A stretch of DNA of 64,000 nucleotides from Pyrinomonadaceae bacterium (GCA_036380435.1 DASVES010000154.1:924-64923), one strand, 5' to 3'; shown: positions 614-52,769, counted from the first letter of the stretch. Numbers and translations are program-made. Notes: generated from the sequence alone by a model not told the origin.

Positions 614-1282
614 TTGCTCGAAGTCTCGAATCTCTACAAAGAATACCCGACGCCGCAGGGGCCGCTCGCGATCCTCTCGGACGTGTCGCTGGCGCTCCGG
701 CGCGGCGACGCGGTCTCGATCATGGGGCCTTCGGGCAGCGGCAAGTCAACGCTGCTCTACATCGTCGGCGCGCTGGAGCGGCCAACCGGCGGGCGCGTCA
801 CGCTCGACGGGCAAGACCCGTTCTCCCTGCGCGAAAAAGAACTGGCCGCCTTCCGCAACGAGCGCGTCGGCTTCGTCTTTCAGGATCACTGTCTGCTGCC
901 GCAGTGTAACGTTATCGAGAACGTGCTCGCGCCGACGCTCGTCTCTAAAAACGGCGACGACGCGGCCGGGCGCGCGCGCGAGCTGTTGGAACAGGTCGGA
1001 CTCAGCGGGCGCACGTCGCACCGCCCCGCAGAGCTTTCGGGCGGCGAGAAGCAGCGCGTCTCGCTCGCCCGCGCGCTCATCCGCCGCCCGTCGCTGCTTC
1101 TGTGCGACGAGCCGACGGGCAACCTCGACGCGCGCGCGGCCGAGTCGGTCGCCTCGCTCCTCTTCGAGCTGCACCGGCGGCAGGAGACCATCCTCATCGT
1201 CGTCACCCACAGCGCGGAGCTGGCCGCGCGCTTCCCCCTGCGCTACGAACTCGTCGGACAGCAGCTCCGCCCCCGCCAATGA
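614..1282 (+). CDS. ABC transporter ATP-binding protein (LolD/MacB type)
   Basis: Walker A GPSGSGKST, signature LSGGEKQRV, Walker B LLLCDEPT. TTG start. The stop overlaps the next start (ATGA at 1279-1282). Confidence 0.92.
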   Translation: MLEVSNLYKEYPTPQGPLAILSDVSLALRRGDAVSIMGPSGSGKSTLLYIVGALERPTGGRVTLDGQDPFSLREKELAAFRNERVGFVFQDHCLLPQCNVIENVLAPTLVSKNGDDAAGRARELLEQVGLSGRTSHRPAELSGGEKQRVSLARALIRRPSLLLCDEPTGNLDARAAESVASLLFELHRRQETILIVVTHSAELAARFPLRYELVGQQLRPRQ

Positions 1283-4200
1283 CCACCGCCACACTCCTCC
1301 GCCGCAACCTCACCTTCTTCTGGCGCACGAACCTCGCGGTCGTCCTGGGCGTGGCCGCCGCCACGGCCGTCCTCGCCGGCGCGCTCCTCGTCGGCGACTC
1401 CGTGCGCGCCTCCCTGCGTAACATTTTCCTCGGCCGTTTGGGCCGCGCCGACCACGTCGTCTCGTCCGCCGGCTTCTTCCGCGAGGCGCTGGCCGAAGAC
1501 TTGAGAGGCGACGCGCGGTTCGCGTCGGGCGGGTTCGACGGAGCCTGCCCGCTCGTCATCCTCGAAGGCGCCGTCACGCACGAGGAGACGGGCCGACGCG
1601 CGGCCGGCGTCGCGGTCTACGGCGTGGACGAACGCTTCTGGGAGTTTCACGGCGTGGACGGCGCCGGTGAGATTGCCCCGCGACGGCGCGACGTGCTCGC
1701 CAGCCCGAGCCTCGCCGGCGAGCTTGAGCTGAAGGCGGGCGACGTGTTGCTGCTGAGAGTGGAGAAGCCCTCGTCGATCCCGGCCGAGTCGCTGCACGGG
1801 CGCAAGGACGACCTCGGCCGCACCATCCGTCTCACGGCGCGCGACACGCTCGACGCCGCGCGCATGGGCGACTTCAGCGCGCGAGCGCAACAGTCAGCCG
1901 TCCGCGCCGTCTTCGTCCCGCTCAGATTGCTGCAACAAGACTTAGAGCAGGACGGCCGCGTCAACTCCCTCCTCGTCTCGACCGCGGGCGGCGACGATGG
2001 CGCGGACGAGCGCGAAGACGCTGCGCGCACCGCGACGCTTGAGGCGATCATCAAAGAGCGCGCTTCGCTCGAAGACCTCGGCATCCGTCTGCGCGCGCTG
2101 CCCGAGCGCGGAAGCATCTCGCTCGAAACCGAGAGCGCCGTCGTCACGGATGCGCTTTACGAGACGGCCCGCGAGGCGGCACGCGCTTCGGGCCTGCGCG
2201 CCGCGCCCGTCCTCTCCTATCTCGCCAACACGATCCGCGTCGGCGCGCGCGAAGTGCCTTACTCGCTCGTGACCGCCATCGATGACGAAACCTTCGAGGG
2301 CTTGCGGCGAACGGCGACGCAGACACAGGGCGACGGAGTGACAGGGCAACAGGGCGACGGGGCGACTGGCGTCGATTCGTCTGCGAGTCAAACGTCATCG
2401 GCTGCCTCGCCGTCGCCGCCCACCGACTCCCAACCCCCAACCCCGATCCTTTTGAACGAGTGGGCCGCGCTCGACCTCGGCGCGCGCACGGGCGACGAAC
2501 TCCAGCTCGAATACTACGTGTGGAAGGAGGACAACCGGCTCGCGGCCGAGAGCGCGCGGTTCCGCGTCGCGGGCGTCGTCCCCATCGCCGGCCTCGCGGC
2601 GGACAGAGACCTCGTCCCCGTCTACCCCGGCATCACCGAGTCGGAGAGCCTTGCCGAGTGGGACCCGCCGTTCCCCGTCGAGCTAAAGCGTGTGCGCCGG
2701 CAGGACGAGGACTACTGGAAGCAGCATCGCACGACGCCGAAAGCGTTCGTCCCGCTCGAAGCCGGGCAAAGACTCTGGCAGACGCGCTTCGGCCGCCTCA
2801 CCTCCGTCCGCATCGACACGCCGGGCGCAGCGGCGACAACCGTTGACGCGCCGGGCGGCGCACAGTTTCAGGCGTCGTTCAATGCGTACCGCGACGAGTT
2901 GAAAAAGTTGATCGACCCGGCGCGCGTGGGACTCGGGGCCTACGGCGCGCGCGCGCAGGGGCTGGCGGCGTCGCGCGGGGCGACGAACTTCGGCGAGTAC
3001 TTCCTCTACTTCAGCTTTTTCATCGTCGTCTCGGCGCTGATGCTCACCGCGCTCTTCTTCAAGCTCGGCGTCGAGCAGCGTCTGCGCGAGATCGGCGTGC
3101 TGCGCGCCGTGGGCTTTCCGCCCGCGCGCGTCCGCAACATCTTTCTCGCCGAAGGGTTCGTGCTCGCGCTCCTGGGCAGCCTGCTCGGACTCGCCGGAGC
3201 CGTCCTCTACGGAAACCTGATGGTGCATGGCCTGCGCACGTGGTGGGTTGACGCCGTCGGCACGACGAGTATCGCCTTGCGCGTCTCGCCGTGGTCGCTC
3301 GCGGCGGGCGCGGCCGGCGCCGTCGTCGCCGCGCTCCTGTGCGTCGTCTGGACGTTGCGCCGGCTCGTGCCCGCGTCGCCGCGCAGCCTGCTCGCCGGTA
3401 AGCCGGAAGGGGGAAGGAGTAAAGGGGAAGGGGTAAAGGCCGGCGGCGCGGCGCGGCGCAAACTTTTGCCCTTTACCCTTTACCCTTTACCCCTTGCCCT
3501 CCTGCTCGCGGCCGTCGGCGTCGCCCTGCTTGTCGCGGCGTGGCTGAAGGCAGTGGGACAGGTGGCGGGGTTCTTCGGCGGTGGGACGCTTCTGCTCGTG
3601 GCGCTGCTGCTGGCGCAGGCCGGCTGGCTGAGAGGCGGACGCAGGAGAGGCGCGTCGATTCAGGGGCATGGCTTCTGGCCGGTGTCGCGTCTGGGTTTTC
3701 GCGGCGCGACGTATCGGCCGGCGCGAAGCGTCTTGTGCATCGCGCTCATCGCGTCGGCCGCCTTCATCGTCGTCGCCGTCGATGCCTTCCGGCGCGACGA
3801 CCGCGCGGCCTCGACGGAGCGCAAGTCGGGAAGCGGCGGCTACGCGCTCCTCGGCACGGCGCTGCTGCCAGTCATCCCCGACCCGAACACCGCCGAAGGG
3901 CGCGACGCGCTGGGCCTCGCGGCCGACGATGAGACGCGCGCGGCGCTCGCCGGCGTCGAGGCGGCGCGCTTCCGCCTGCGCCCCGGCGACGACGCGAGTT
4001 GTCTGAATCTCTACCAGCCGCGCAACCCGCGCATCCTCGCGCCGTCGGCCGATTTCGTCGCCAGCGGCCGCTTCGACTTTCAGGACTCGCTGGCCGAGTC
4101 CGCGGAAGAGAAGTCGAACCCGTGGCTGCTGCTGGGCCGCGACACGTCGGACGCTACGGTGCCCGTCATCGCCGACGCCAACTCGCTCAACTACGTCCTC

Positions 4201-6377: not shown

Positions 6378-6454
6378 CGCCGGGCCGCGAACGCGCAGGG
6401 AAGTTAGTGACGGGCCGCGGAGACGTTGAAGCAAGCGACGACGAGCCGCGGAGC

Positions 6455-6640
6455 GGCGGCAGAATGTAGCCCCGGTCGTGAGACCGGGGTGGCAGCAGGA
6501 TGAAAAGATTTTAGCCCCGGAGGGGCGAAAGAACATTAACCTTGACGGTGGCCGATGTTGATGTTCTTTCGCCCCTCCGGGGCTTTCGTCTCTTTCGCAC
6601 CTGTTCCCACGGCTCGCGCCGTGGGCTACATTCTGCCGCC
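6455..6640. repeat. Multi-hairpin (cloverleaf-like) palindromic element, copy 1
   Basis: Outer stem ggcggcagaatgtagcc / ggctacattctgccgcc. Small hairpins ccccggtc-gtga-gaccgggg and cccacggc-tcgc-gccgtggg. Central stem agccccggaggggcgaaagaa / ttctttcgcccctccggggct. Confidence 0.9.
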
Positions 6641-6711
6641 GCCTTCGGCGGCTGGCATCGCGTTCCTCCCACGCGGTGCGTAACGCTTCTGTCGTCATCG
6701 TCGTTGGAAAC

Positions 6712-6770: not shown

Positions 6771-8054
6771 GTGAGTTCACGTCTCGCCCTCGCCTTCGCC
6801 GCCGCCTTGTCTTTCGCCGCCGCCCTCGCCTTCGCTGCGCCGGTCTTCGCCGACAACTGGCCGCAGTGGCGCGGCCCGGCGCTCAACGGCACGAGCGTCG
6901 AGCGGAACCTGCCTGTCAAGTGGGGGCCGGAGGAGAACGTCTCGTGGAAACTCCCGATGCCGGACGGCAGCGGCTCGACGCCGATTGTCTGGGACGAGCG
7001 TGTCTTCCTCAACGTCGCCGAGGGCGACGCGCTCGCGCTATGGTGCGTTGATAGATCGAAGGGCAGCGTCCTTTGGAAGCGCCCGCTCGGCGGCGGCAAC
7101 GAGCGGATGCGTAAGCACAACATGTCTTCGCCGTCGCCCGTGACCGACGGCCGCAGCGTCTACGTGATGACCGGCACGGGCCTCCTCAAAGCATTCGACT
7201 TCGCGGGCAAGGAACTCTGGTCGCGCGACATCCAGAAGGACTACGGACAGTTCGGACTCCAGTGGGGCTACGCCTCGTCGCCGCTCCTCCACGACGACGC
7301 GCTCTTCGTGCAGGTGCTCCACGGCATGAAGACCGACGAGCCGTCTTATGTCTTGCGCGTCGATAAGAAGACGGGTAAGACCCTGTGGCGCGTCGAGCGC
7401 CCGACGGCGGCCGTGCGCGAGTCGCCTGACGCGTACACGACGCCCGCGCTTCTGCGCCACGGTAAGACGTTTGAGATCGTCGTCACCGGCGGCGACGTGG
7501 TGACGGGCCACGACCCGGCGACGGGCAGGGAACTGTGGCGCGCCGGCGGTCTTAACCCCGACAACAACCCTTTCTACCGCATCGTCGCCTCGCCCATCGC
7601 CTTCGACGGAATCATCTACGCCCCGACGCGCGTCCGCCCCCTGCTCGCCATCCGCGCGGGCGGGCGCGGCGACGTGTCGAAGTCGCACCTGCTATGGTCA
7701 ACGGAGAACGGGCCGGACGTGCCGACGCCTGTCACCGACGGCAAATATTTCTACGTCGTTAACGACCGCGGCATCGTCTGGTGCCTCGACGCGAAGACCG
7801 GCAAGGAGGTCTACGGCGCGCAGCGCATCAAGTCGGGAACCTACAGCGCGTCGCCGGTGTTGGCCGACGGCAAAATCTACGCGACGAGCGAGGACGGCGT
7901 GACGACCGTCGTCAGGGCCGGGCCGCAGTTCGAGGTGCTGGCCGAGAACGACCTCAAGGAGCACACGCTCAGCTCGCCGGCCGTCTCCGACGGACAGCTC
8001 TTCCTGCGTACCTCGCAGAACCTCTACTGCATCGGCAAGCGGCAGAAGCAGTGA
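6771..8054 (+). CDS. Secreted BamB/PQQ-like beta-propeller repeat protein
   Basis: GTG 6771 with AAGGAG 7 nt upstream gives signal peptide [27 protein letters not shown], then [12 protein letters not shown]. The stop TGA 8052-8054 lies inside the AGCAGTG repeat arm. The track start at 6729 is less likely. Confidence 0.88.
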
Positions 8055-8330
8055 GCAGTGAGCAGTAATGAGCGCCGGAGGCGCGGAAGAAAGTAGCCAC
8101 GGGCGACCGTCCCGTGGAATAGCCGTAAATAAAAATTGAAAGCCCCGGAGGGGCGAAAGAATCTGAAGCCTGCCTGAAACGTGGCTTGAGGTTCTTTCGC
8201 CCCTCCGGGGCTTTGATCCTTTAATCGAACTCGTACCCACGGCTCACGCCGTGGGCTACATTCTTTCGCGCCTCCGGCGCTCGTTGACGCCCGTAGCTTA
8301 CCGCGCACCGCTCACTGCTTACTGCTCACT
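8047..8330. repeat. Multi-hairpin palindromic element, copy 2, enclosed by AGCAGTG heptamer arms
   Basis: Outer arms agcagtgagcagtgagcagtaatgagcg / cgctcactgcttactgctcact. Next layer gagcgccggaggcgcggaagaaagtagcc / ggctacattctttcgcgcctccggcgctc. The central stem has the same agccccggaggggcgaaagaa sequence as copies 1 and 3. Confidence 0.9.
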
Positions 8331-8332
8331 CT

Positions 8333-8782
8333 TCAAGACTGCGGCTTGAAGTAGAGGGCCATGCCGGCGCCGAGGGCGGCGAGGAGGAAGCCGACGTAGA
8401 CGAGCGGGTTGGGCGCTTGCTTCGGCGGGTGGAGGATCATCGAGACGATGACGTTGACGACGGGCGCGCCGGCGAAGACGAGCGGCATCACGTAGGTCGG
8501 CAGTCCGCCGTTGCGGAAGGCGTAGATGATGCAGACCGCGCCGACGGCGCCGAGGGCCCCGCCGGCCGTCGCCGCCGCCGACCCCTTCAGGTTGAAGCCG
8601 CCGAGCTGCCCCTGCGACCACAGGCTGATGACGGGCACGAGCACCCCGACCAGAAAGTACGCCACGCCCACACACAGCAGCGCCCGCATCGGGTTCTTCA
8701 ACTCCACCTGCCCCTGATGCAGTATCGGCCCGTACAAACCCCACGACAGCGCCGCGCCGAGCGCGAAGATTACCCAGAGCAT
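8333..8782 (-). CDS. Small integral membrane protein, EamA/DMT-like half-transporter
   Basis: 149 aa with about four hydrophobic helices (MLWVIFALGAALSWGLYGPIL…, C-terminal VYVGFLLAALGAGMALYF). High GC3 frame. The family call is tentative. Confidence 0.6.
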   Translation of the reverse strand: MLWVIFALGAALSWGLYGPILHQGQVELKNPMRALLCVGVAYFLVGVLVPVISLWSQGQLGGFNLKGSAAATAGGALGAVGAVCIIYAFRNGGLPTYVMPLVFAGAPVVNVIVSMILHPPKQAPNPLVYVGFLLAALGAGMALYFKPQS

Positions 8783-8801: not shown

Positions 8802-8921
8802 GGGAGTCAGGAGTCAGGAGTCAGGAGTCAGAATAAAAACCTCCGACCGCGCCGGTCTGTGGTAACACGGCGGCCGTCCGTCGTCAATCTTCTGACTCCT
8901 GTCTTCTGACTCCTGACTCCC
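8802..8921. repeat. GAGTCAG heptamer-arm hairpin, copy 1
   Basis: gggagtcaggagtcaggagtcaggagtcagaataaaaac ... cttctgactcctgtcttctgactcctgactccc, followed by ttttttat. Confidence 0.9.
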
Positions 8922-8928
8922 TTTTTTA

Positions 8929-11900
8929 TCAGAACACCAGCCGCAGCCCCAACTGAATCTGCCGCGACGAGGTGACGGTCGAGCGGACGCGCCCGAAGGT
9001 GGAGAGCGGAAGCTCGCCGTCGGTCGTGCCCGTGAAGGCGAGGAGGTTCGGCGGTGCGAAGTTTGCCCGGTTGAAGAGGTTGAACGCCTCGAAGCGAAGC
9101 TGGAGGACGGTGTTCTCGCCGAGCGCCGGCAGGCGCGTGTTCTTGACGGCCGAGAGGTCGAAGATTCTGAGGTTGGGGCCGATGAAGGTTCCGCGCCCGA
9201 GCGTGCCGAGCCGGCCGGCGCTCTGGAGCACGAAGGCGTCGGGGTTGAACCACTGTTCGGGCCGACCGAGCACGGCCGACTCGTGCGTGAAGCCGGGCGC
9301 GAGGCTCGGGCGGTCGAACCCCTGGCCGGGGCCGATGGAGGGCGACCACTGCGAGCGCGAGCGGTTGCGCTGGACGAAGACGGTCAGCGGGTTGCCCGAG
9401 CGCATCTGCCCGATGCCGGCGAGTTGCCAGCCGTCCAGAATCTTGCCGGCCGCGCCGCGCATCCCGCGCGCGAAGGGAAGCTCCCAGATGAAGTTGAGGA
9501 CGAAGTTGTGCTTGGCGTGGTAGTCGGCGAGGCCCTTGTTGTAGTTGAGGCCGGGGAACTCTGGGAAGGCCGTGGTGGTGCCGTTGGTGGCGTCGGAGAA
9601 GAAGGTCGATGCCTGCGTGGTGTCGATGTTGCGCGAGAAGGTGTAGGACGCTTGCGCGCTGAAGCCGCGGCTGAAGCGCTTGCGCGCCTCGAAGACGGCC
9701 GAGTTGTACCACGAGTTGCCGTCCGAGGACTTCAGCTCGATGGTCGTAAAAGCCGTGTTCGGCCGGAGCTGCCCCGTGGGGAAGAAGAGCGAGCCGTCGG
9801 CTTGCGTGACGGGCACAGGCGTGTTCACGTCGGAGCTACGCAGGAGGTGGACGCCGCGCGAGCCGGCGTAGCCGAGCGTGACGACGGTGTCGAACCACAG
9901 CTCGCGCTGGAGGTTCAGGTTCCACACTTGCAGGTACGGATTCTTCAGGTCGTACTGGATGGGCCGAATCGACTGCGACCCCACGGCGAACGAGGGAACG
10001 GGGAACGTCGGGTTGGCGATGATGGGCCGGGGCGTGGCCGGCGGGTTCGTCACCGTGACGATGAGGTTCTGCTGGTTGTTCGTGTTGAAGTAGACGCCGA
10101 AGCCGCCGCGCAGAGAGGTCTTCCCGTCGCCGAAGATGTCCCACGCGAAGCCGACGCGCGGGGAGAGGTTCTTGTGGGTCGGGTTCTGGTAGAGCTGCCC
10201 GGCGGTGGGCGTGCGATCCGTCAGGTTCGGCAAAGAAACGTCGCGCCCGCCGGTGTCGAGCGGCATGGTCGAGAACTCGTAGCGCAGGCCGGCGTTCAAG
10301 GTCAGGCGGTCGGTGACGCGGAAGGTGTCCTGCGCGTAGAGGCCGAAGAGGGTGAAGCGCCAGTAGCGGTCGAGCGCGCCGCCCGGAGAGATGCCGAGGA
10401 AGCGCGCCGGCGTGTTACGCAGGAAGTCGCGCAAAGAGTTGAAGGTGAAGACCCCGAGACTAAACGTCGGGTTGACCATGTTGTCCTGGTAACGCTCGGC
10501 GAGGCCGCCGACTTTAATCAAGTGGCGGCCGCGGCTGTGGACGAGGCCGTGCTCGAAGCCGAAGACGTTCTGGGTGAGCCGCAGGTTGGCGGAGGTCTGC
10601 GGGCCGAAGCGACCGGGGATGCCGCCGATGTCGATGCCGCCGACGAGGTCCTGACCCGGCACGAAGGGCGTCAAGGCTTGCGTCGTGTTCGACTCGACGT
10701 TCTGACCGACGCGCGTGCGGCCGAAGTTGAAGCGGAAGGTGTTGATGGTGTTGGCCGAGTGCGTGCGTCGGTACTCGCCCGTGAAGAACTGGTTGCGCGA
10801 AAGGAAGGTGCGCGGGAATTGCGGGAAGTCGGTCGGCAAGAGTTGGTCGGCGTCGTCGAAGGTGTAGCGGGCGAAGAACTGCTCGCGCTCGCTGCGGTTG
10901 TAGTCGATGCGCCCCTGAAAGAAGTGCTGGCGCACCTGCTGGTTGAAGCCGAAGACGTAGTCGGCGAGGTTGCCGCAGACGCGCGACGCGCCTGTGTTCG
11001 GCAGCGGGAACTCGTCGAGGTACGGCCTCACGGCGGCGCTCACGCCGACGAACTGGCGGTTCGGGCACGGCTGCCCTGCGGGCGCGACGGCCTGCGAGGT
11101 GGAGATAAAGCCTTCGCGCGCGTCGAGGTCGGGGACGATGGTGCGAACGGTGCGGCCGAGGTCTTCGCGCAGCGACTCGTATGCGCCGAAGAAGAAGAGT
11201 TTGTCGGTGCGGACGGGGCCGCCGATGGAGCCGCCGAACTGGTTGCGTCGAAACTCAGGCTTCTCCGCGCCGTCGAAGAAGTTACGCGCGTCGAGGTTGT
11301 CGTTGCGGTGGAACTCGTAGAGCGAGCCGTGAAACTCGTTCGTCCCCGACTTGGTGACGGCGTTGATCTGGCCGCCGAAGTTGCGGCCGAACTCGGCGCT
11401 ATAGGCGTTGGTCTCGATGCGAAACTCGCGGATGCTCTCGATGCCGAGCGAGGTGCCGGCGGCGCTGCCGGCGGGGCCGTTGGTGAAGTCGTTCTGCGGC
11501 GTGCCGTCGAGGAGATAGACGTTCGAGCGCGGGTCTTGTCCGTTGATGCTGGTGCCGAGGCCGTGGGCGACGACGGAGCCGCCGTCGCGGTGGGGGAAGG
11601 CGACGACGCCGGGCTGCAGGAGCGCGAGGTCGGTGTAGTTGCGACCGTTTAAGGGCAGCTCGCGGATGGCGCGCTCGCCGACGAGGTAGGAGAGTTCGGG
11701 CGTCTGCGTGTTGACGAGCGCCGTCTCGTCCGTGACGGTGATCGAGTCGGAGACGCCGGCCGCCTCCAGAGGGATGTTGAGCGTGGCCGTCTCGCCCACG
11801 GTGAGGCGCACGCGGTCGGCGACGTAGTTCTTAAAGCCTTCCTTCTCGGCGCTCACCTCGTAGGCGCCGACGGTGAGCGCGGGGAAGGTGAACAGCCCCT

Positions 11901-16204: not shown

Positions 16205-16876
16205 ATGAGCAACAAGATCGTCGTTCCGCGCAGGGAGTTTTTGCTGGCGGGCGCGGCGGCCGTCCCACTCCTCGGCGTCGCGGCCTCTCGCATGAAGCAG
16301 GGCGTCGTTGTCGAGCCGCTGGCGGCCAACGACGCTTCCGCCGCGGCCGAGACGTGTCGTCTCACGGAGGAGAGCCAGTACGGCCCCTTCTATCGCGAGG
16401 GCGCACCGTGGCGCGCGAAATTCTGCGGCTTGGAGGAGCCGGGCGAGCGGCTCACAATCGCGGGCCGCGTGACGGCCGCCGACAACTGCCAGCCGCTCAA
16501 AGACGCCGTCCTCGACGTGTGGCACGCGAGCGCCGCCGGCTTCTACGACAACAACGACCCGGCGCGCCCTTTCGACCCCGCGCGCTATCATCTGCGCGGC
16601 CGCGTCCGCACGGACTCGGACGGCCGCTACCAGTTCGAGACCGTCCTGCCCGGCAACTACGGACAGGGCCGCTTCATGCGCGCCAAGCACATCCACCTGC
16701 TCGTCACCTGCGCCGGCCGCGCGCCGCTCGTCACCGAAATCTACTTCGCTGGCGACAAGCACAACGACACCGACGGCCTCGTCCGCCGCTCACTCATCAC
16801 GCAGTTGTCGGGCGCCGCCCGCGAGAAGGACGCCGCTCCACAGCGCGGCACGTTCGACATCACTCTGGGGAAGTGA
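16205..16876 (+). CDS. Intradiol ring-cleavage dioxygenase-like protein with Tat-type leader
   Basis: MSNKIVVPRREFLLAGAAAVPLLG. Core YGPFYREGAP…LDVWHASAAGFYD…RGRVRTDSDGRYQFETVLPGNY…RAKHIHLLV. Stop TGA 16874-16876 lies inside the GTGATAA arm. Confidence 0.8.
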   Translation: MSNKIVVPRREFLLAGAAAVPLLGVAASRMKQGVVVEPLAANDASAAAETCRLTEESQYGPFYREGAPWRAKFCGLEEPGERLTIAGRVTAADNCQPLKDAVLDVWHASAAGFYDNNDPARPFDPARYHLRGRVRTDSDGRYQFETVLPGNYGQGRFMRAKHIHLLVTCAGRAPLVTEIYFAGDKHNDTDGLVRRSLITQLSGAAREKDAAPQRGTFDITLGK

Positions 16877-16946
16877 TAAGTGATGAGTGATAAGTGATAA
16901 GAAAGAACTGCCTCTCTTTCTTATCACTTATCACTCATCACTTATC
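16873..16946. repeat. GTGATAA heptamer-arm hairpin, copy 1
   Basis: gtgataagtgatgagtgataagtgataagaaaga ... tctttcttatcacttatcactcatcacttatc. TGA at 16874, 16881 and 16888 covers all three frames. Confidence 0.92.
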
Positions 16947-27580: not shown

Positions 27581-27717
27581 ACTCACCGCAGAGGCGCAGA
27601 GGACGCGGGGAAGCAAGGATGAAGGATGAAGGATGAAGGATGAGGGGAAGACGACCTGTCTTTTTTCATCCTTCATCCTTCATCCTTCATCCTTGCCTCT
27701 GCGCCTCTGCGGTGAAT
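27581..27717. repeat. Composite hairpin: CACCGCAGAGGCGCAGAGG outer arms plus GGATGAA heptamer inner arms
   Basis: actcaccgcagaggcgcagagg…caaggatgaaggatgaaggatgaaggatga / ttcatccttcatccttcatccttcatccttgcctctgcgcctctgcggtgaat. Confidence 0.92.
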
Positions 27718-29133: not shown

Positions 29134-29156
29134 GGGAAGGAACCTCTCGGAAAGTC

Positions 29157-29240
29157 GGGAGTCAGGAGTCAGGAGTCAGGAGCCAGAAGGAAGAAAGCAA
29201 CCATGCTTTTATTCTGACTCCTGACTCCTGACTCCTGACT
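29157..29240. repeat. GAGTCAG heptamer-arm hairpin, copy 2
   Basis: gggagtcaggagtcaggagtcaggagcc … cttttattctgactcctgactcctgactcctgact. It abuts the TGA of the ankyrin gene. Confidence 0.9.
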
Positions 29241-30146
29241 TCACTGTTGTTTCGTTTCTTCGACCCTCGTGTAAGGGATGGTGGCCGGCCCCTGCTTGAG
29301 CGTGAAGCCGTTGACCTTGCCGGCCTCGGGCGTGAAGATAACGGTGATGCCGTCGAAGGCGGTCGGCTTGAAGGTCATCTTGTCGAGGGCGTACATGGTG
29401 AGCGGCGGCTGGCCCGTGGCCGCGGCGATGAGCTTGCCGTCCTTGACGGAGAAGACCAGCTCGGGGCCTTGCGTGCCCTTGAAGCGGCCGACGTATGTCT
29501 GGAGCGTCGCGGCATCGACCTCGGCGGGCGGCTGCGCGCCGGCCTTCTTCAACATCTCGACGATCTCGACTCCCTTATCGCCGGCCTCCGTCGCCGCGAC
29601 GAACGCGCCCGTCATCGACTCCGGCTTGAGATTGCCCTTGTCGAGCGCGGCGCGGACGAGCGCGGCGTTTCCGCCTCGCGCCCCCGTGGAAAGCACGTCG
29701 CCCGCGTCGTCGGCGCTCTTTTCAAGGATGGCGCGGACGGCATCGACGTGCCCCTTGTCGAGCGCCCACGTCATCGCCGTCGCGCCGTAGAAAGTATCGC
29801 GCACCGTCACATCAGCGCCGCGCTCGATGAGCAGTTTGACGATGTCGGCGTTGCCGCGCTCGGCGGCCTTGAACAGAGCCGTCGCGCCGTAGCGGAATTT
29901 GGCGTTCACGTCAGCGCCCTTGTCGAGCGTGGCCTTGACGGCGGCCACGTCGCCCTTGCGAACGGCCTCGTAGAGTTCATCGTTGAGCTTTTGTTTCTCC
30001 GGCGACGGTGTCGCGGCCGGCACGGGCGTCGGCGTCGCGGTCGGTGCTGGCGACGGTGTCGGCGTCGGCGTCGCGGTCTGCGCGATGGCGGCCGGCGGGG
30101 CGAGCAGGAGCAGGAGGAGGAGGGGCAGAAGTCTTCTGAGTTTCAT
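29241..30146 (-). CDS. Secreted ankyrin-repeat protein with extra C-terminal beta domain
   Basis: MKLRRLLPLLLLLLLAPPAAIAQ, Thr/Pro linker, then ANK repeats (GADVNAKFRYGATALFKAAERGNADIVKLLIERGADV…). ATG 30146 is preferred over 30236. Confidence 0.85.
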   Translation of the reverse strand: MKLRRLLPLLLLLLLAPPAAIAQTATPTPTPSPAPTATPTPVPAATPSPEKQKLNDELYEAVRKGDVAAVKATLDKGADVNAKFRYGATALFKAAERGNADIVKLLIERGADVTVRDTFYGATAMTWALDKGHVDAVRAILEKSADDAGDVLSTGARGGNAALVRAALDKGNLKPESMTGAFVAATEAGDKGVEIVEMLKKAGAQPPAEVDAATLQTYVGRFKGTQGPELVFSVKDGKLIAAATGQPPLTMYALDKMTFKPTAFDGITVIFTPEAGKVNGFTLKQGPATIPYTRVEETKQQ

Positions 30147-32806: not shown

Positions 32807-33859
32807 ATGAACGAAGACGCACAGCACGCGACGCAGGCGACGACGCCACAGCAACAACAGCAGGGGCCGACGCCCGAGCGCATCTTTCTAACGCTCACCG
32901 GCTATCAGCAGGCCGCCGCCCTGAAAGCCGCCATCGAGCTGGATATCTTCAGCGCCATCGCCGAGGGCGACGACACCAGTGAGAAGCTGGCCGCGCGCCT
33001 CCCGGCGGCCGAGCGCGGCGCGCGCATTCTCTGCGATTACCTGACCGCTTTGCAGTTTCTCGCCAAAGAGGACGGGCGCTACCAGCTCACGCCGGAGTCG
33101 AAGTTGTTTCTCGACCGCCGCTCGCCGGCCTACGTCGGCGGCGTCTCCGGCTTCCTCTCGCGGCCTTACATGATCGAGGCGTTTCAGAACGTGGCCGAAT
33201 GCGTCCGCAAGGGCGGCACGATGCTCGAAGATCAGGGCACGGTGACGCATGAGAACCCGATCTGGGAAGACTTCGCGCGCAGCATGGCGGCGATGATGCA
33301 GCCCTCGGCACAGGCCATCGCGCGCATCACGGGCGCGGCCGAGATGGAAGAGTGTAAGGTGCTCGACATCGCCGCCGGCCACGGCATCTTCGGTATCACC
33401 ATCGCCGAACAGAACCCGAGGGCCGAGGTCTACGCCGTCGATTGGCACAACGTCTTGCAGATTGCGCGCGAGAACGCCGCCAGCGCGGGCGTCGCCTCGC
33501 GCTATCACATGATGCCGGGCAGCGCCTTCGAGGTGTTGTTCGGCGACGACTACGACCTCGTGCTCTTTACCAACTTCTTTCACCACTTCGACCCGCCGAC
33601 CTGCGAGGCGCTGATGCGAAAAGCGCACGCCGCCCTCAAGCCGGGGGGCCGCGCCGTGACGCTCGAATTCGTGCCCAACGAAGACCGCGTCACGCCGCCC
33701 GCGGAAGCCGCCTTCGCCATGACCATGCTCGCCTCGACCCCTTCGGGCGACGCCTATACGTTCTCCGAATTCGACCAGATGTTCCGCAACGCCGGGTTCG
33801 CCCGCAGCGAGCTGCACCCGTCGCCGCCGGAGCACATCATCGTGAGCACAAAGCAGTGA
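32807..33859 (+). CDS. O-methyltransferase, family 2 (COMT/ASMT-like, with N-terminal dimerisation/wHTH domain)
   Basis: Starts 1 nt after the upstream stop. VLDIAAGHGIFGI SAM motif. Stop TGA 33857-33859 lies inside the AGCAGTG arm. Confidence 0.85.
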   Translation: MNEDAQHATQATTPQQQQQGPTPERIFLTLTGYQQAAALKAAIELDIFSAIAEGDDTSEKLAARLPAAERGARILCDYLTALQFLAKEDGRYQLTPESKLFLDRRSPAYVGGVSGFLSRPYMIEAFQNVAECVRKGGTMLEDQGTVTHENPIWEDFARSMAAMMQPSAQAIARITGAAEMEECKVLDIAAGHGIFGITIAEQNPRAEVYAVDWHNVLQIARENAASAGVASRYHMMPGSAFEVLFGDDYDLVLFTNFFHHFDPPTCEALMRKAHAALKPGGRAVTLEFVPNEDRVTPPAEAAFAMTMLASTPSGDAYTFSEFDQMFRNAGFARSELHPSPPEHIIVSTKQ

Positions 33860-33992
33860 GCAGTGAGCAGTAACACAGAGGAATTGAAGTCAATGAAAAA
33901 TATTCGACGCAGTAGAGTCATCATTCTTTTAACGGCGGTGTTCGCGGCGGTAGCGGCAGGCGGTTTACTGCTTACTGCTCACGGCTCACTGC
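33853..33992. repeat. AGCAGTG heptamer-arm hairpin spanning a gene junction
   Basis: Left arm gcagtgagcagtgagcagtaa (33853-33873), right arm ttactgcttactgctcacggctcactgc (33965-33992). The 91-nt loop holds the RBS and ATG 33893 of the next gene. Confidence 0.85.
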
Positions 33993-35431
33993 CGAACCCT
34001 TCAGACCCCGGCACCGGCGACTGGCCGATGTGGGGCGGCACGCCCGACCGCAACATGGTCACGAGCATGAAGGGGCTGCCCGTCTCGTGGGACGTGAAGA
34101 CGAAGAAGAACGTCAAGTGGATGGCGCAACTGGGTTCGCAGACCTACGGCAATATCACGGTGGCGGGCGGCATCGTCTTAGTCGGCACCAACAACGAGGG
34201 CGCGCGCGATCCCAAGATCACCGGCGACAAGGGCGTGCTCATGGCCTTCAAGGAGTCCGACGGCACGTTTCTCTGGCAGGCCGTCCACGACAAGCTCGTC
34301 GCGGGCCGCGTCAACGACTGGCCGTATCAGGGCATCGCCTCCTCGCCCCTCGTCGAAGGGGAGCGCGTCTACTACGTCTCTAATCGGGGCGAGTTGATGT
34401 GCGTCGATGCTCAGGGGTTCCGCGACAAGGAGAACGACGGCCCCGTGACCGACGAGAAGCTGACGGGCGAGACCAACCCGGACATCATCTGGCGGCTCGA
34501 CATGATGGGCGACGAGGTCGGGAGCTTCCCGCACAACCTCTGCAACTCCTCGCCCGTCTCCTACGGCGACCTCGTCTACGTCAGCACCTCGAATGGGCAG
34601 GACGAGAGCCACGTCAACATCCCCGCGCCGAAGGCCCCGGCCATCATCGCCGTCGATAAGAAGACCGGGAAAGTCGTCTGGGAGGACGCCAGCCCCGGCG
34701 ACAAGATTCTCCACGGGCAGTGGTCAACACCCACGGTCGGAAAAATCGGCGACACCGTACAGGTCATCATGGGTCAGGGCGACGGCTGGGCGCGCGGCTA
34801 CGACGCTTTGAAGGGCACGAAGCTCTGGGAGTTCGACCTCAACCCGAAGGACTCCGTCTGGCCCAAGACGCGCAACGAGATCATCGCCACCCCGGTCATC
34901 TACGAGGGCAAGATTTATCTCGCCAACGGACAAGACCCGGAGCACGGCGAAGGCGTCGGCCACATGTACTGCATCGACGGCACCAAGCGCGGCGACATCA
35001 CGAAGACCGGCATGGTCTGGCACTACGACAAGATTCGCCGCACCATCTCAACGCCGGCCATCGTTGACGGCATCATCTATCAACCCGACTTCAGCGGCTT
35101 CCTCCACGCCATCGACGCCAAGACCGGACAGGCTTACTGGGTACACGACATGTTCGCGGCCATGTGGGGGTCGCCCCTGGCGTCGGTCGCGGGCGGCGTG
35201 CTGTATCTGGGCGACGAGGACGGCGACGTGGTCGTCATGCAGTTGGGGAAGACGAAGAAGGTGCTGGCCGAGATCAACATGGGAAGCTCTGTCTACAGCA
35301 CGCCCGTGCCGGCCAACGGCGCGCTCTACATCGCCAACCGCAACCAGCTCTTCGCGCTGGCCGAGGGGGCCGGCGGCGCGCCCGCCACGCCCAAGCCGGC
35401 GACGGCCTCGGCCACGCCGGCCAACCCGTAG
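33893..35431 (+). CDS. BamB/PQQ-like beta-propeller repeat protein with N-terminal signal anchor
   Basis: GAGGA RBS, MKNIRRSRVIILLTAVFAAVAAGGLLLTA, then DWPMWGGTPDRN. C-terminal Ala/Pro tail. Confidence 0.88.
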   Translation: MKNIRRSRVIILLTAVFAAVAAGGLLLTAHGSLPNPSDPGTGDWPMWGGTPDRNMVTSMKGLPVSWDVKTKKNVKWMAQLGSQTYGNITVAGGIVLVGTNNEGARDPKITGDKGVLMAFKESDGTFLWQAVHDKLVAGRVNDWPYQGIASSPLVEGERVYYVSNRGELMCVDAQGFRDKENDGPVTDEKLTGETNPDIIWRLDMMGDEVGSFPHNLCNSSPVSYGDLVYVSTSNGQDESHVNIPAPKAPAIIAVDKKTGKVVWEDASPGDKILHGQWSTPTVGKIGDTVQVIMGQGDGWARGYDALKGTKLWEFDLNPKDSVWPKTRNEIIATPVIYEGKIYLANGQDPEHGEGVGHMYCIDGTKRGDITKTGMVWHYDKIRRTISTPAIVDGIIYQPDFSGFLHAIDAKTGQAYWVHDMFAAMWGSPLASVAGGVLYLGDEDGDVVVMQLGKTKKVLAEINMGSSVYSTPVPANGALYIANRNQLFALAEGAGGAPATPKPATASATPANP

Positions 35432-36871: not shown

Positions 36872-38038
36872 ATGCGGGAAGTTGAAAGTGAAGAAGGGCA
36901 GGAGACGTTGGCGCGTTCAATCTCGCGGCGCGGGTTCCTCGCGGTGCCCGTGGGTCTCTACCTCGCGGGCCATGCGGCGCGCGCGCAGGAGTTCACGGGC
37001 GGCGACAGTTGGCCGCAGTTTCGGGGCAACCCGGCGCTGACCGGCTTTACGCGCTCCGGTCTCTCGGACACGTTGCGCGTGCTGTGGACTTACGAGGCGG
37101 GCGAGTCGGTCGAGTCATCGGCGGCGATTGTGGGCGGCACGGTCTACGTCGGCTCGCAGAAGGGGGAGCTGGTGGCGCTCGATTTGGGAAGCGGGCGCGA
37201 GCGTTGGAAGTACGGGGCCGGGTCGCCGATAGGCGAGTCGTCGCCGGCGGTCGTCGGCGGCACGGTCTACGTCGGCGACCTCGGCGGCACAGTCCACGCC
37301 GTCTCGGCGCGCGACGGGAAGCGCGTGTGGGTTTTCAAGACGGGGAGCGAGGTGAAGTCGTCGCCGGTCGTAAGCGCCGGCAAGGTGCTCGTCGGCTCTT
37401 ACGATCAGCACTTGTACGCCCTCGCGGCGCGCGGCGGAAACGTCCTCTGGAAGATGAAGACGGACGGCGCCGTCCATTGCACGGCGTCGGTCGTGGGCGG
37501 CGTCGCTTACATCTCGGGTTGCGATGAGCGTCTGAGGGCCGTGCGCGTCGCCGACGGCCGACAGGTCTTCCAGCTCAACTCGGGCGCATACACCGGCGCC
37601 TCGCCCGCCATCATGGCCGGCAACGCCTTCTACGGCACCTTCAACAACGACGTGCTCGGCATCAACCTCGTCGCCAAGCGCGTCGGCTGGCGCTACACGA
37701 ACCCGGAGCGGCAGTTCCCGTTCTATTCCTCGGCGGCGGCCGTGGACGCGCGCGTCGTCGTCGGCGGGCGCGACAAGGCCGTCCATTGTCTCGACGCGCG
37801 CAACGGCGCTCGACTCTGGAGCTTCAACACGCAGGCGCGCGTCGATTCGTCGCCCGCGCTCGCCGCCGGGCGCGTCTTCGTCGGCTCGAACGACGGACGC
37901 CTCTACGCGCTCGACTTCTTCTCCGGCGACAAGGCGCAGGAGTTCAACCTCGGCGGCCCCGTCTCGGCCTCGCCGGCCGTCGCCGCGGGCCGCGTCGTCG
38001 TCGGCACGCAGGACGGGCGCGTTTACTGTTTGGGATGA
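36872..38038 (+). CDS. BamB/PQQ-like beta-propeller repeat protein with Tat-type signal
   Basis: AGGGAGGGA RBS. …SISRRGFLAVPVGLYLAGHAARAQE, then SWPQFRGNPALTG. Regular VVGGTVYVGS…G.L.ALD…G blades. Confidence 0.88.
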   Translation: MREVESEEGQETLARSISRRGFLAVPVGLYLAGHAARAQEFTGGDSWPQFRGNPALTGFTRSGLSDTLRVLWTYEAGESVESSAAIVGGTVYVGSQKGELVALDLGSGRERWKYGAGSPIGESSPAVVGGTVYVGDLGGTVHAVSARDGKRVWVFKTGSEVKSSPVVSAGKVLVGSYDQHLYALAARGGNVLWKMKTDGAVHCTASVVGGVAYISGCDERLRAVRVADGRQVFQLNSGAYTGASPAIMAGNAFYGTFNNDVLGINLVAKRVGWRYTNPERQFPFYSSAAAVDARVVVGGRDKAVHCLDARNGARLWSFNTQARVDSSPALAAGRVFVGSNDGRLYALDFFSGDKAQEFNLGGPVSASPAVAAGRVVVGTQDGRVYCLG

Positions 38039-38061
38039 GTCAGTAAGCATTAAGCCTCAAC

Positions 38062-38275
38062 GAGCGCCGGAGGCGCGGAAGAATGTAGCCCACGGCGTCA
38101 GCCGTGGGTTTTAAGCGGCAACCAAAATCAAAGCCCCGGAGGGGCGAAAGAAGTGCAGCGCGCGTCTAACGGCGGTCGCAATTTCTTTCGCCCCTCCGGG
38201 GCTTCATTTCCTTTGCCGGGCCTGTCCCCACGGCTCGCGCCGTGGGCTACACTCTTCCGCCGCTTTCAGCGGCTC
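38062..38275. repeat. Multi-hairpin palindromic element, copy 3
   Basis: gaagaatgtagcc / ggctacactcttc outer stem. cccacggc-gtca-gccgtggg, central agccccggaggggcgaaagaa / ttctttcgcccctccggggct, cccacggc-tcgc-gccgtggg. Degenerate heptamer arms lie outside at 38036-38055 and 38281-38301. Confidence 0.9.
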
Positions 38276-38298
38276 GTCGTCTTCTTACTGCACATCAC

Positions 38299-38811
38299 TC
38301 ACGCCTTCTTAACGAAGACGCGCTTGTTGTTGAAGGTGCCGCGCGGGGTCTCCTGGATGGTCTCGATGGAGATGGTGCCGTCGGGCCACGCCGTCCACTT
38401 GCGGGCGATGATGAGGGTCACGTCCTGCCCCTGCGGGTTCTTGGTCTGAATCTCCTCTTCGAGGAAGAAGCCCTTGCCGTTGGGGAGCCAGTTGCCTTTG
38501 CGCTTGCCCTTGGCGGGCGGCGCGTCGGGGCGCGGCGGCGGCGGGGTGAAATCGATCTCCTTGCCGTCGAGCACGAACTCGTCCTTCTGTACGCGCTCGC
38601 CCTGCGCGTTGACGATCTTGACCTCTAAAGAGACCTTGTCGCCGTTGTGGACGACCGTCATCGTCTGCTTCATGTCGGGCGGGATACTGTGGCTTTGCTT
38701 CTGGTCGAGTTCCCATGTGCCGCTGAAGTTGGGCCGGGGGCCGAAGGCTTTCGCCGCGACCACCGCGGCGAGCAGGCAGGCGAGGGTAACGAGGGGGGTT
38801 CTTAGTCTCAT
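38299..38811 (-). CDS. Secreted hypothetical protein
   Basis: MRLRTPLVTLACLLAAVVAAKAF signal peptide. No recognised domain. ATG 38811 avoids the repeat-derived N-terminal extension. Confidence 0.65.
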   Translation of the reverse strand: MRLRTPLVTLACLLAAVVAAKAFGPRPNFSGTWELDQKQSHSIPPDMKQTMTVVHNGDKVSLEVKIVNAQGERVQKDEFVLDGKEIDFTPPPPRPDAPPAKGKRKGNWLPNGKGFFLEEEIQTKNPQGQDVTLIIARKWTAWPDGTISIETIQETPRGTFNNKRVFVKKA

Positions 38812-41181: not shown

Positions 41182-41200
41182 CTAGAAGCTCCTATGAATA

Positions 41201-41269
41201 GGTGATAAGTGATAAGTGATAAGTGATAAGAAAGAATTTGTCTTCTCTTATCACTTATCACTTATCACC
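41201..41269. repeat. GTGATAA heptamer-arm hairpin, copy 2 (between DUF3311 and the symporter)
   Basis: ggtgataagtgataagtgataagtgataagaaaga … tcttctcttatcacttatcacttatcacc. Confidence 0.92.
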
Positions 41270-41481
41270 TTCCGTGCCACTTCTTCTTCGAGGTGGCCGG
41301 GCCAGGCGAAGGTCACGAGCAGCCACATCAGCCCGGCGCACGCCACCGAGAAGCACGCCTGATAGAAGAGGCCGATGGGCATGAAGCCGAAGACGAAGGG
41401 GCGCGCCTCTCTCCAGTTCCAGAAGTCCTGGTGCAGCACGTAGAGCACGGCGACGGCGATGACGAGCAGCAGTTTTCTCAT
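41251..41481 (-). CDS. DUF3311 small membrane protein
   Basis: MRKLLLVIAVAVLYVLHQDFWNWREARPFVFGFMPIGLFYQ…. The C-terminal KVISDK and the TGA are encoded by the repeat arm. Confidence 0.8.
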   Translation of the reverse strand: MRKLLLVIAVAVLYVLHQDFWNWREARPFVFGFMPIGLFYQACFSVACAGLMWLLVTFAWPGHLEEEVARKVISDK

Positions 41482-47047: not shown

Positions 47048-48087
47048 CGAAGAAAAAAAAGCCGACCGTCAAGAAGCTCCGCATTCTCGTGCTCTGCCAG
47101 CACGACCTCGTCCCGCCCGACGCGCTCCCCGAGGGCGTGGCGAAGGAGACGCTGCGCTGGCGCACCGAGTACGACGTGGTCTCCACCTTACGCTCGATGG
47201 GCCACGACGTTTACCCCGTCGGCCTCTACGACGAGACGGACGTGATTCGCACGGCGATGCAGGATCACGAGCCGCACGTCGCCTTCAATCTCATCGAAGA
47301 GTTCGACCGCCAGCCCATGTTCGACCAGCACGTCGTCAGCTATCTGGAGCTGAAGCGTCTGCCCTACACGGGCTGCAACCCGCGCGGCCTGACCATCGCC
47401 AAAGATAAGGCGCTCACCAAGAAGATTCTGGCCTACCACCGTATCAACGTCCCCGGCTTCGGCGTCTTCCCGCAAGGACGCAAGGTGCGCCGGCCCGCGC
47501 GCCTGCGCTTTCCGCTGCTCGTCAAGTCCGTGACGGTCGAAGGCTCGGTCGGCATCTCGCAGGCTTCCATCGTCAACACTGACGAAAAACTCGCCGAGCG
47601 CGTCGATTTCATCCACCGGCAGACGAACTCGCCGGCCATCGCCGAGGAGTTCATCGAGGGGAGAGAAATCTACGTCGGCGTCATCGGCAACCGTCTGCTG
47701 AAGGCTTACACGCCGTGGGAGCTGGAGATGAAGACGCTGCCCGAGGGGACTGTGAACATCGCCACGGGGAAGGTGAAGTGGAACCCGAAGTATCAGGAGA
47801 AAGTCGGCCTCGTCACGCACGCGGCCGAGGTCACGCCCGAGCTGCGCCGCCGCCTCGAACATCTCTCGAAGCGCATCTACCGCCTGCTGTTTCTCTCCGG
47901 CTACGGCCGTCTCGACTACCGCATCACCGAGGACGGCCGCATCTATCTCCTCGAAGCCAACCCCAACCCGCAAATCGCCCACAACGAGGACTTCGCCGAC
48001 TCGGCCGAAGACTGCGGCGTCAAATACGGCCCGCTGCTCCAGAAAATCCTCACCCTCGGCATGAGCTACGAGCCGGGCGTGGTGTAA
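47044..48087 (+). CDS. ATP-grasp ligase, D-Ala-D-Ala ligase-like family
   Basis: …KDKALTKKILAYHRINVPGF…PLLVKSVTVEGSVGIS…EEFIEGREIYVGV…GRLDYRITEDGRIYLLEANPNP. The track ORF from 46321 is an out-of-frame shadow extension. Confidence 0.85.
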   Translation: MTKKKKPTVKKLRILVLCQHDLVPPDALPEGVAKETLRWRTEYDVVSTLRSMGHDVYPVGLYDETDVIRTAMQDHEPHVAFNLIEEFDRQPMFDQHVVSYLELKRLPYTGCNPRGLTIAKDKALTKKILAYHRINVPGFGVFPQGRKVRRPARLRFPLLVKSVTVEGSVGISQASIVNTDEKLAERVDFIHRQTNSPAIAEEFIEGREIYVGVIGNRLLKAYTPWELEMKTLPEGTVNIATGKVKWNPKYQEKVGLVTHAAEVTPELRRRLEHLSKRIYRLLFLSGYGRLDYRITEDGRIYLLEANPNPQIAHNEDFADSAEDCGVKYGPLLQKILTLGMSYEPGVV

Positions 48088-48091
48088 AAAA

Positions 48092-48176
48092 GCAGTCAGG
48101 AGTCAGGAGTCAGGAGTCAGAATAAAAACGGAGGCGCTGTCTTCATTCTGACTCCTGACTCCTGACTCCTGGCTCC
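48092..48176. repeat. GAGTCAG heptamer-arm hairpin, copy 3
   Basis: gcagtcaggagtcaggagtcaggagtcagaataaaaac … cattctgactcctgactcctgactcctggctcc, followed by tgtttta. Confidence 0.9.
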
Positions 48177-48300
48177 TGTTTTATCCCTTTCGTCCTGAAG
48201 CGCGGCCCTTTCGTCCCACGCCGCTTCACAGGGCGGCGCGGGGGCGTTTATACTCACGCGTTTCGACGGGGTGGGCGGCGCGCGACTGTGGGTGCTTTCT

Positions 48301-52606: not shown

Positions 52607-52769
52607 AGCTATTAGCCATTTGCTGTTAGCTGTTAGCTAAATGCTGTCCGTTGTCCGTGGTCAGTCATCCGTTGCTCGCGGCCCGCGGCTTGAGCCGTCC
52701 GACGCGAGCGGGAAGAAGCGTCAACGGAAAGCGTTTAGCTAACAGCTAATGGCTAACAGCTAACAGCTT
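52607..52769. repeat. GCTGTTA heptamer-arm hairpin
   Basis: gagctattagccatttgctgttagctgttagctaaa … tttagctaacagctaatggctaacagctaacagctt, with a loop of about 92 nt. Confidence 0.9.

Follow-up and report, generated by a model that had tools for sequence, protein, structure and literature searches.

We analyzed a 64-kb stretch (hereafter, the window; C154:924-64923) of a 5.21-Mb draft metagenome-assembled genome (MAG) from a soil Acidobacterium of the Pyrinomonadaceae (65% GC). The window carries about ten hairpins whose arms are tandem repeats of a seven-nucleotide unit (heptamer hairpins), and several unrelated genes in it take their stop codon, and sometimes their last residues, from such an arm. 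Comparison with orthologues points to replacement of the native tail in some of these genes and to retention of the native stop in others. These hairpins are probably mobile palindromes resembling repetitive extragenic palindromic (REP) sequences and miniature inverted-repeat transposable elements, or MITEs, wedged into tight gene junctions, where their built-in stop codons make intrusion into a gene end tolerable. Judged by a D-Ala-D-Ala ligase-like protein (84-86% identity), the nearest relatives are soil MAGs labelled Pyrinomonadaceae (Acidobacteriota, class Blastocatellia).

An earlier note on the window had listed seven genes that end in or beside a repeat arm, and the sequence facts it gave are correct. 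The propeller gene (6771-8054) and the O-methyltransferase gene (32807-33859) both finish AAG CAG TGA, giving proteins that end in KQ, within an arm that contains AGCAGTGAGCAGTGAGCAGTAA; this 22-mer is present in exact copies at 8047-8068 and 33852-33873, with none expected in 100 shuffles. The Dioxygenase_C gene (16205-16876) finishes GGG AAG TGA, with its stop (16874-16876) inside an AAGTGAT tract that starts at 16871. On the minus strand, the tail KVISDK and the stop of the DUF3311 gene (41251-41481) are read wholly from the arm at 41244-41270, as GTG ATA AGT GAT AAG TGA, and the TGA of the ankyrin gene (29241-29243) directly abuts a CTGACTC-type arm at 29212-29240. The stops of the genes ending at 38038 and 38299 lie within TGAGTCAGTAAGCATTAAGC and TGAGTGATGTGCAGTAAG, which look like AAGCAGT-type arms, now decayed, that enclose a nested palindrome of 214 nt. 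Pfam domains confirm the cited genes, including Dioxygenase_C, the BamB/PQQ-like propeller and DUF3311.

The earlier note also proposed, as one of two possibilities, that insertion into or beside gene 3' ends had replaced the native C termini. We compared them with orthologues from 5 to 60 genomes, which align as far as the last few residues; below, G000 is the genome of the window, G055 belongs to the same genus, and G001 and G006 belong to other genera. The clearest case is DUF3311. In 18 of 19 relatives, the protein ends ..EEEVExxxxKEEDEAR, about 11 codons longer, and its TGA overlaps the TTG, GTG or ATG start of a symporter gene; only the window has a heptamer hairpin (~75 nt) at this junction, together with the KVISDK tail. 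The C terminus and stop of DUF3311 have been genuinely replaced, inside a translationally coupled pair. At the same junction, the relative G021 carries a different, non-heptamer inverted repeat (TGATTTGC...GCAAATCA) at the place of the hairpin.

Three further cited tails are altered by one or a few residues. O-methyltransferases of relatives end in K (AAG followed by TAG, TAA or TGA), whereas the window reads AAG CAG TGA, a single added Gln closed by the arm. Hairpins of the AGTAGAC/AGTAGAA type occupy the same place clearly in G001, G055 and G064 and in more decayed form in G062 and G061. The 3' arm falls within the signal-peptide region of the next gene in the window (..GGLLLTAHGSLP..), G001, G055 and G062. 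Both arms have changed in concert at this fixed site, the unit differing between the window and its relatives. In the propeller, the short basic tail past a conserved LY(A/C)(I/V)G varies from genome to genome (KRQKQ, QRKK, RRKK, KKKG, KRTVSR or KK), and in G006 the stop likewise lies inside an arm, of unit AGGGATG. The dioxygenase comparison is weaker, as orthologues are absent from the five closest genomes and homologues of 53-57% identity were used; they end LARTA or LRKAN, and the window protein, ending LGK, is two residues shorter.

The proposed replacement fails for the remaining three genes, which stop at the same residue as their relatives, the outcome that the earlier note had named as a refutation. 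The genes ending at 38038 (YCxG) and 38299 (KKA or KKQ) do so where relatives lack the repeat; the ankyrin gene (KQQ or KQP) shares its stop position with G055, which holds only a remnant, TAAAGTCCTGACTCC. Past its ankyrin gene, G055 reads TAA AGTC CTGACTCC, like the hairpin of the window minus its interior, possibly an excision scar or a seed. Neighboring genes ending at 8333 (FKPQS), 8929 (RLxF) and 48087 also retain native stops. In all six of these genes, the arm begins at or after the native stop. A reciprocal case is found in G001 (C4, ~591.7 kb), where the orthologue of window gene 614-1282, an ABC ATPase, ends ..RRDEG in an AGGGATG arm before a permease gene; the same two genes overlap in the window, free of any hairpin.

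For a wider sample, we took 26 genes with a stop 3 nt or more into a heptamer tract, joined the C-terminal 75 residues of each as one query, located orthologues in three genomes of the same genus and two of other genera, and compared the gene ends. In 21 of the 23 genes new to the comparison, tail length and sequence are unlike those of relatives that lack the element, with 1 to 7 native residues lost and 2 to 11 arm-coded residues gained. The other two (ending ..KKQ, and ..NQ versus ..KQ) end at the same residue as the repeat-less orthologue. At many of the sampled sites, none of the five relatives has an element. Sites found empty in relatives include DUF3311 (18 of 19 relatives), ddl, the D-Ala-D-Ala ligase-like gene (~40 of 40), and the sampled sites seg1, 13, 14, 15, 16, 18, 24 and 25; the ddl junction (48085-48178) is occupied in the genome of the window only, among about 40, and is empty in G055 and G062. 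Alignments of filled and empty sites (DUF3311, seg13, 14, 16, 18, 24 and 25) show the empty state as an ATGA, TGATG or TTGA overlap or a spacer of a few nucleotides. In the filled state, the downstream start codon is retained, and the last codons and stop of the upstream gene are replaced. At seg13, 14, 16, 18 and 24 in G000, that start codon lies a few nucleotides past the pyrimidine-rich 3' arm with no visible Shine-Dalgarno sequence, and the empty sites of seg14 and seg16 in relatives show purine-rich runs within or just past the end of the upstream gene.

Copy numbers also differ by lineage. The AAGTGAT-type pattern GTGATRAGTGATRAGTGAT has 833 matches in this genome, none in G055 and 100 to 380 in five other genera; GCAGTRAG.., representing the AGCAGTG type, has 255 matches here versus none in G055.

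Genome-wide, tracts of period 7 number 2014, versus 152 to 236 for periods 5, 8, 10 and 11, a roughly 10-fold excess. Most of them sit as inverted pairs and not as single direct runs; there are 573 such pairs, with a median spacer of 31 nt (range, 10-80 nt). Each hairpin spans 60 to 100 nt and consists of two arms of ~25-30 nt forming about 30 perfect base pairs, and the predicted stem energies run from -40 to -65 kcal/mol (z-scores, -10 to -14). Compared with the genome, the arms are rich in AT. About 20 unit families are present, among them AAGTGAT/AGTGATG, AGCAGTG/AAGCAGT, AGAGGTC/AGAGGTT, AGGAGTC, AAAAGGC, AAAGTTC and AATCGTC/G; members of one family have conserved inner stem ends and a variable loop center. 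Inspection of five families and of the flank composition profile revealed no conserved tetranucleotide, such as a GTAG or CGTC head, at the outer ends and no conserved target motif beside the arms. Polarity is strict: on either strand, the purine-rich version of the heptamer forms the 5' arm (113:0 for AAGTGAT, 52:0 for AGCAGTG, 58:0 and 40:1 for others), as at 16871, 27615, 29153, 41198 and 48091 in the window. Stop-codon content accounts for only part of this polarity, because the 5' arm is stop-free in 7 of the 19 major families (and in 5 of the 10 commonest).

We then related the hairpins to genes, using a simple in-house caller based on open reading frames (ORFs) and codon usage (4177 genes); called stop positions depend on the reading frame alone, and starts are less certain. 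At least one gene 3' end adjoins 516 of the 573 hairpins, divergent spacers hold 31, and 2 are intragenic. Of the 577 gene ends beside a hairpin, 274 have a stop codon that overlaps the stem, and in 135 the stop codon falls within the heptamer tract. Relative to the outermost paired base, the start of the stop codon has its peak at -1 and mostly falls between -10 and +10. Tandem gene junctions hold 74-87% of the elements, with the next start codon a median of about 18-35 nt past the 3' arm. At many junctions, the element is practically the entire intergenic spacer. Occupancy is about 13% of junctions per genome.

Since 7 is not a multiple of 3, a single stop triplet in the unit is shown in all three frames within 21 nt, so that an ORF entering a stop-bearing arm closes within that distance, and short tails recur. 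On 46% of element sides, the first arm is enough to close every frame, versus 7% of composition-matched shuffles, and T-N-A occurs in some register in 524 of the 573 units (as TGA or TAA on one arm or as its complement on the other). Inbound arms that close three frames contain the stop of 35% of adjoining genes; with inbound arms that close no frame, only 10% of genes continue into the loop or the second arm. The same arm-coded tails recur on unrelated proteins (VISDK/VISDE/VMSDK, VSSKQ, EVRG, NRES/NRQS and DEG). Their length is limited by the period, mostly to 0-5 codons, and is greater only with stop-free arms, as in SSKFKVQS. Relatives with hairpins of other units have arm-coded tails of their own (VNRES, MMSDE, KDEDEG, KVTSDK and others), and the tails are thus a family-wide phenomenon. 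The supply of stops is best seen as a consequence of the period of 7, one that lets the palindromes survive intrusion at gene ends.

Together, these results suggest a course of events for the REP/MITE-like reading. A large population of palindromic repeats would be gained and lost lineage by lineage and would persist almost only at gene junctions, chiefly the tight or overlapping stop/start junctions of co-directional genes. There, an insertion that spares the downstream start would often have to cut away the last codons and stop of the upstream gene. The heptamer arm, offering TGA, TAA or TAG in every frame within 21 nt, could close the truncated ORF at once, at the cost of 0 to 6 arm-coded residues such as VISDK, VSSKQ or EVRG. 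The stop supply would then be a by-product that allows such insertions to survive and not the purpose of the element. The anatomy, the placement relative to stops, the closure of frames, the replaced tails, the presence or absence in relatives and the lack of target duplications are directly seen in the sequences; that the elements are mobile and that selection rather than targeting shapes their position is what we infer. Targeting of stop-codon contexts, which the earlier note had offered as the alternative to insertion at gene ends, cannot be separated from the survival of only harmless insertions.

The target-site duplications that the earlier note suggested as a mark of insertion were not found. 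Direct matches of 3 to 6 nt between flanks occur at shuffle level (87 versus 85.5, 21 versus 23.8, 8 versus 6.5 and 3 versus 1.8), as does flank identity of 3 to 8 nt, and no duplication is visible in eight comparisons of filled and empty sites. A fold-back origin, with an inverted copy of the target at the outer stem, was also considered and rejected: the outer extensions are variant heptamers or family-typical AAAGGC/GCCTTT ends and are not locus specific.

Several observations weigh against the mobile-palindrome reading. Neither a target motif nor a target-site duplication nor a transposase was found, in searches that were not aimed at genes for REP-associated tyrosine transposases (RAYTs) or at insertion sequences (ISs) with heptamer ends, so the case for mobility is drawn from presence/absence and shared sequence only. 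The position counts rest on crude in-house gene calls, with some small ORFs doubtful. At the TonB (8929), seg3 and seg23 junctions, every genome compared carries a heptamer hairpin, of differing units; at the TonB site, hairpins are found in G055, G006 and G001, the G006 unit being a close relative of the GGAGTCA of the window and the G055 and G001 units unrelated. At an occupancy of ~13%, independent landing would yield fewer occupied genomes per junction, which suggests hot spots or turnover of the unit in place; random landing explains such junctions less well than a needed function or a hot spot does. Some elements are old and have been inherited vertically, namely, the seg4 element, common with G001, and the TonB hairpin, common with G006 (related units and the same AATAAAAAC loop start). 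Finally, the empty sites of seg16 and seg18 already hold a near or full copy of the unit (TCAGTAG and GCAGTGA), which is also compatible with growth out of the local stop context or with copying guided by homology. The match between empty site and unit is 7/7 at seg18 (GCAGTGA/GCAGTAA), 6/7 at seg13 and seg16 and at most 5/7 at six other sites, and it is not beyond chance given the fixed TGA and ~20 units to match.

The same observations bear on the idea that the hairpins are host-selected RNA elements placed after stops (bidirectional terminators, stabilizers of 3' ends or RNase III sites), evolving in place by slippage from the local stop context, with the overlap of stops reflecting a compact genome. 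We regard this as unlikely, even though it would account for the very stable stems, the near-absence from divergent spacers, the junctions occupied by differing units across several genera, the six native stops of the window and the likeness of the seg16 and seg18 empty sites to the unit. The outer flanks, rich in A 5' of the hairpin and in T 3' of it, are also in its favor, as are runs of at least 4 T in the 8 nt past the stem in 21% of elements versus 10% of controls. The remaining 79%, however, have no T-tract, and AT-rich stems of ~30 bp are unlike those of canonical terminators, which leaves the canonical terminator reading weak. Many elements moreover lie within operons between coupled genes (DUF3311-symporter; ABC ATPase-permease in G001; seg2, where the empty site of G062 is an ATGA overlap), where a terminator would harm; with T-tracts in only 21%, this makes a general terminator role unlikely. 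Further, slippage in place sits poorly with ~20 unit families common to hundreds of unrelated loci and with family-specific loop ends, with the absence of the two commonest families from the same-genus sister species, and with the ddl junction, occupied in one genome of about 40.

Alternatively, the hairpins could be selected translational insulators, which stop ribosomes in every frame on both strands and add a hairpin, kept to block read-through or to uncouple neighbors. Whole elements do close all three frames in either direction in 82% of cases, versus 47% of shuffles, and both the frequency of T-N-A units and the strict polarity would be in keeping with such a role. Closure, however, follows automatically from a period of 7 and one stop triplet; 27% of first arms leave every frame open, and the 39 copies of the AAAAGGC family are stop-free on both arms. 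About 70% of adjoining genes end at their own stop ahead of the arm, so the extra stops usually go unused, and lineage-specific presence argues against necessity. We consider insulation improbable. Coincidence or misannotation, in which ORFs happen into AT-rich repeats with stop triplets or gene ends are miscalled, draws on the crudeness of the gene caller and is very improbable given the Pfam domains, the period-7 excess and the shared 22-mer, and it is refuted for the cited genes by the orthologue alignments.

A bolder form of the mobile-palindrome reading is that period-7 arms with T-N-A are an evolved, self-insulating design of an element specialized in splitting overlapping, coupled genes. 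Whatever the phase of the upstream frame, the arm would close it, and the ~30-bp stem would keep the old stop next to the following start codon at its base, allowing termination-reinitiation coupling to survive an insertion of 80-100 nt that removes the downstream Shine-Dalgarno context. The strict polarity would then reflect this function or a template-directed making of the arms. We put this forward as a speculation with little chance of being right.

The hairpins and associated features of the window are collected in Table 1.

Table 1. Heptamer hairpins of the window and the gene ends beside them
Position	Strand	Feature
3405..3500	+	GGGTAAA/TTTACCC heptamer arms inside uninterrupted FtsX-like coding sequence 1279-4872; one of only 2 intragenic elements called genome-wide
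8045..8068	+	5' arm (AGCAGTG)x3 holding the last two codons and stop (AAG CAG TGA, 8052-8054) of propeller gene 6771-8054
8069..8305		Nested REPIN-like compound palindrome (~240 nt) inserted in the heptamer hairpin's loop; Acido-Lenti-1 match at 8236-8281
8306..8335	-	3' arm (CACTGCT-type), then native stop 8333-8335 of gene 8333-8782, FKPQS as in all relatives compared
8803..8931	-	GGAGTCA hairpin, arms 8803-8831 and 8888-8920; native stop of TonB-type receptor, 8929-8931, 9 nt outside
16871..16946	+	AAGTGAT hairpin; stop of dioxygenase-like gene 16205-16876 in first heptamer; -53 kcal/mol, z -13.7
27615..27694		AAGGATG hairpin; the stop of minus-strand gene 27745-29133 lies 50 nt upstream
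29153..29243	-	AGTCAGG/CTGACTC hairpin; native ankyrin TGA 29241-29243 abuts arm
33850..33993	+	AGCAGTG hairpin; O-methyltransferase stop 33857-33859 in 5' arm; 3' arm 33963-33993 in signal-peptide part of next gene
38036..38301		Decayed AAGCAGT-type arms 38036-38056 and 38280-38301 around 214-nt REPIN-like palindrome; stops at 38038 (+) and 38299 (-) native
41198..41270	-	AAGTGAT hairpin between DUF3311 gene and symporter partner; tail KVISDK and stop 41251-41253 arm-coded
48085..48178	+	Native TAA 48085-48087 of D-Ala-D-Ala ligase-like gene, then AGTCAGG hairpin
52607..52768		AGCTGTT/AGCTAAC-type heptamer arms with longer spacer, at a tandem gene junction

An Rfam scan assigned the heptamer hairpins to no family; Acido-Lenti-1 RNA (RF01687) alone matches, within the nested element. 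Five matches exceed the gathering score, at 8236-8281 (+), 38063-38108 (-), 38227-38274 (+), 6444-6489 (-) and 6606-6653 (+), and those at 8236 and 38063/38227 fall within the compound palindromes of ~214-240 nt that resemble REP doublets forming hairpins (REPINs). The nested insert of ~240 nt is also found within AAAAGGC-family hairpins elsewhere in the genome. The published Acido-Lenti-1 "small RNA" motif may be the arm of a repeated DNA palindrome.

These observations matter in several ways. The hairpins would exemplify genome-scale colonization of the tightest junctions, including overlapping stop/start sites in operons, by a selfish palindrome that does not kill genes. The same repeat-coded C-terminal tails are found on well over a hundred unrelated proteins of a single genome and on further proteins across the family, and they are a source of both annotation noise and new C termini. 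Caution is also due, as stop codons and last residues are often non-orthologous between species of these Acidobacteria. If the hairpins prove to preserve or modulate the coupling of neighboring genes, they would provide a natural system for termination-reinitiation across structured spacers.

A literature search for heptamer hairpins in Acidobacteria found no description, and the closest parallels lie in other systems. Like intrinsic terminators, the elements place a stable hairpin directly past a stop, and in some copies an A-tract and a T-tract border the hairpin, as in a bidirectional terminator; they differ in the composition and length of the stem, in the scarcity of T-tracts and in their frequent position inside operons between coupled genes. 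With long simple-sequence (heptanucleotide) and short tandemly repeated repetitive (STRR)-like repeats they share the enrichment of heptamers over other periods, but not the single direct runs.

Small non-autonomous palindromic elements at or in gene ends, which give residues or stops to host proteins, include Correia/NEMIS in Neisseria and RPE in Rickettsia. Coxiella MITEs (PMC5896051) and enterobacterial RU elements (PMC2759123) are likewise reported as small palindromic elements at or in gene ends that contribute residues or stops. The heptamer hairpins resemble MITEs in their presence/absence polymorphism at orthologous sites. MITEs at ORF ends differ in having unique internal sequence, IS-linked terminal inverted repeats and usually target-site duplications, whereas here the whole stem is the 7-nt repeat and no duplication is seen.

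The TAACTGA repeats of marine Beggiatoaceae offer stops in all three frames and hence overlap ORF ends by at most 18 nt; 13 cases overlap a stop codon, and mobile carriage into coding sequence has been argued to terminate the gene (MacGregor 2015, PMC4679880). In contrast to the hairpins described here, they are direct repeats (with one inverted case) of a single unit, form no hairpin and lie mostly just upstream of start codons (PMC4679880). Arrays of the heptamers GGGAATC in Xanthomonas and GGGGA(C/T)T in Nostoc are mostly intergenic, 0-50 bp from stop codons on the coding strand, with some overlapping the ORF end, and GGGAATC forms 70-75 convergent inverted pairs per genome in Xanthomonas (Rehm et al. 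2015, PMC4692102). These arrays are like ours in being tandem heptanucleotides close to stop codons; they differ in using one G-rich unit per genome, which the authors read as quadruplex forming, and in being mostly single, and neither arm-coded tails nor orthologue-based replacement of a C terminus is reported there (PMC4692102).

The closest likeness is to GTAG REPs and their bacterial interspersed mosaic elements (BIMEs, or REPINs), high-copy extragenic palindromes at co-directional and convergent junctions, near or overlapping ORF ends, which also lack target-site duplications and whose termini provide neighboring ORFs with TAG stops (Di Nocera, De Gregorio & Rocco 2013, PMC3733652). A REP is a single conserved palindrome of 20-40 bp with a GTAG or CGTC head, whereas the present elements consist of tandem heptamers of ~20 units, have stems of ~30 bp, longer than those of classical REPs, and offer a stop in all three frames; no RAYT-type transposase is linked to them, RAYT genes not having been the object of a dedicated search. 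The donation of stop codons by REPs is thus already published, and here these traits are combined in a more extreme and regular form. What the heptamer hairpins add is the many unit families, the paired arms, the strict polarity, the frequent wedging into overlapping junctions and the demonstrable replacement of C termini.

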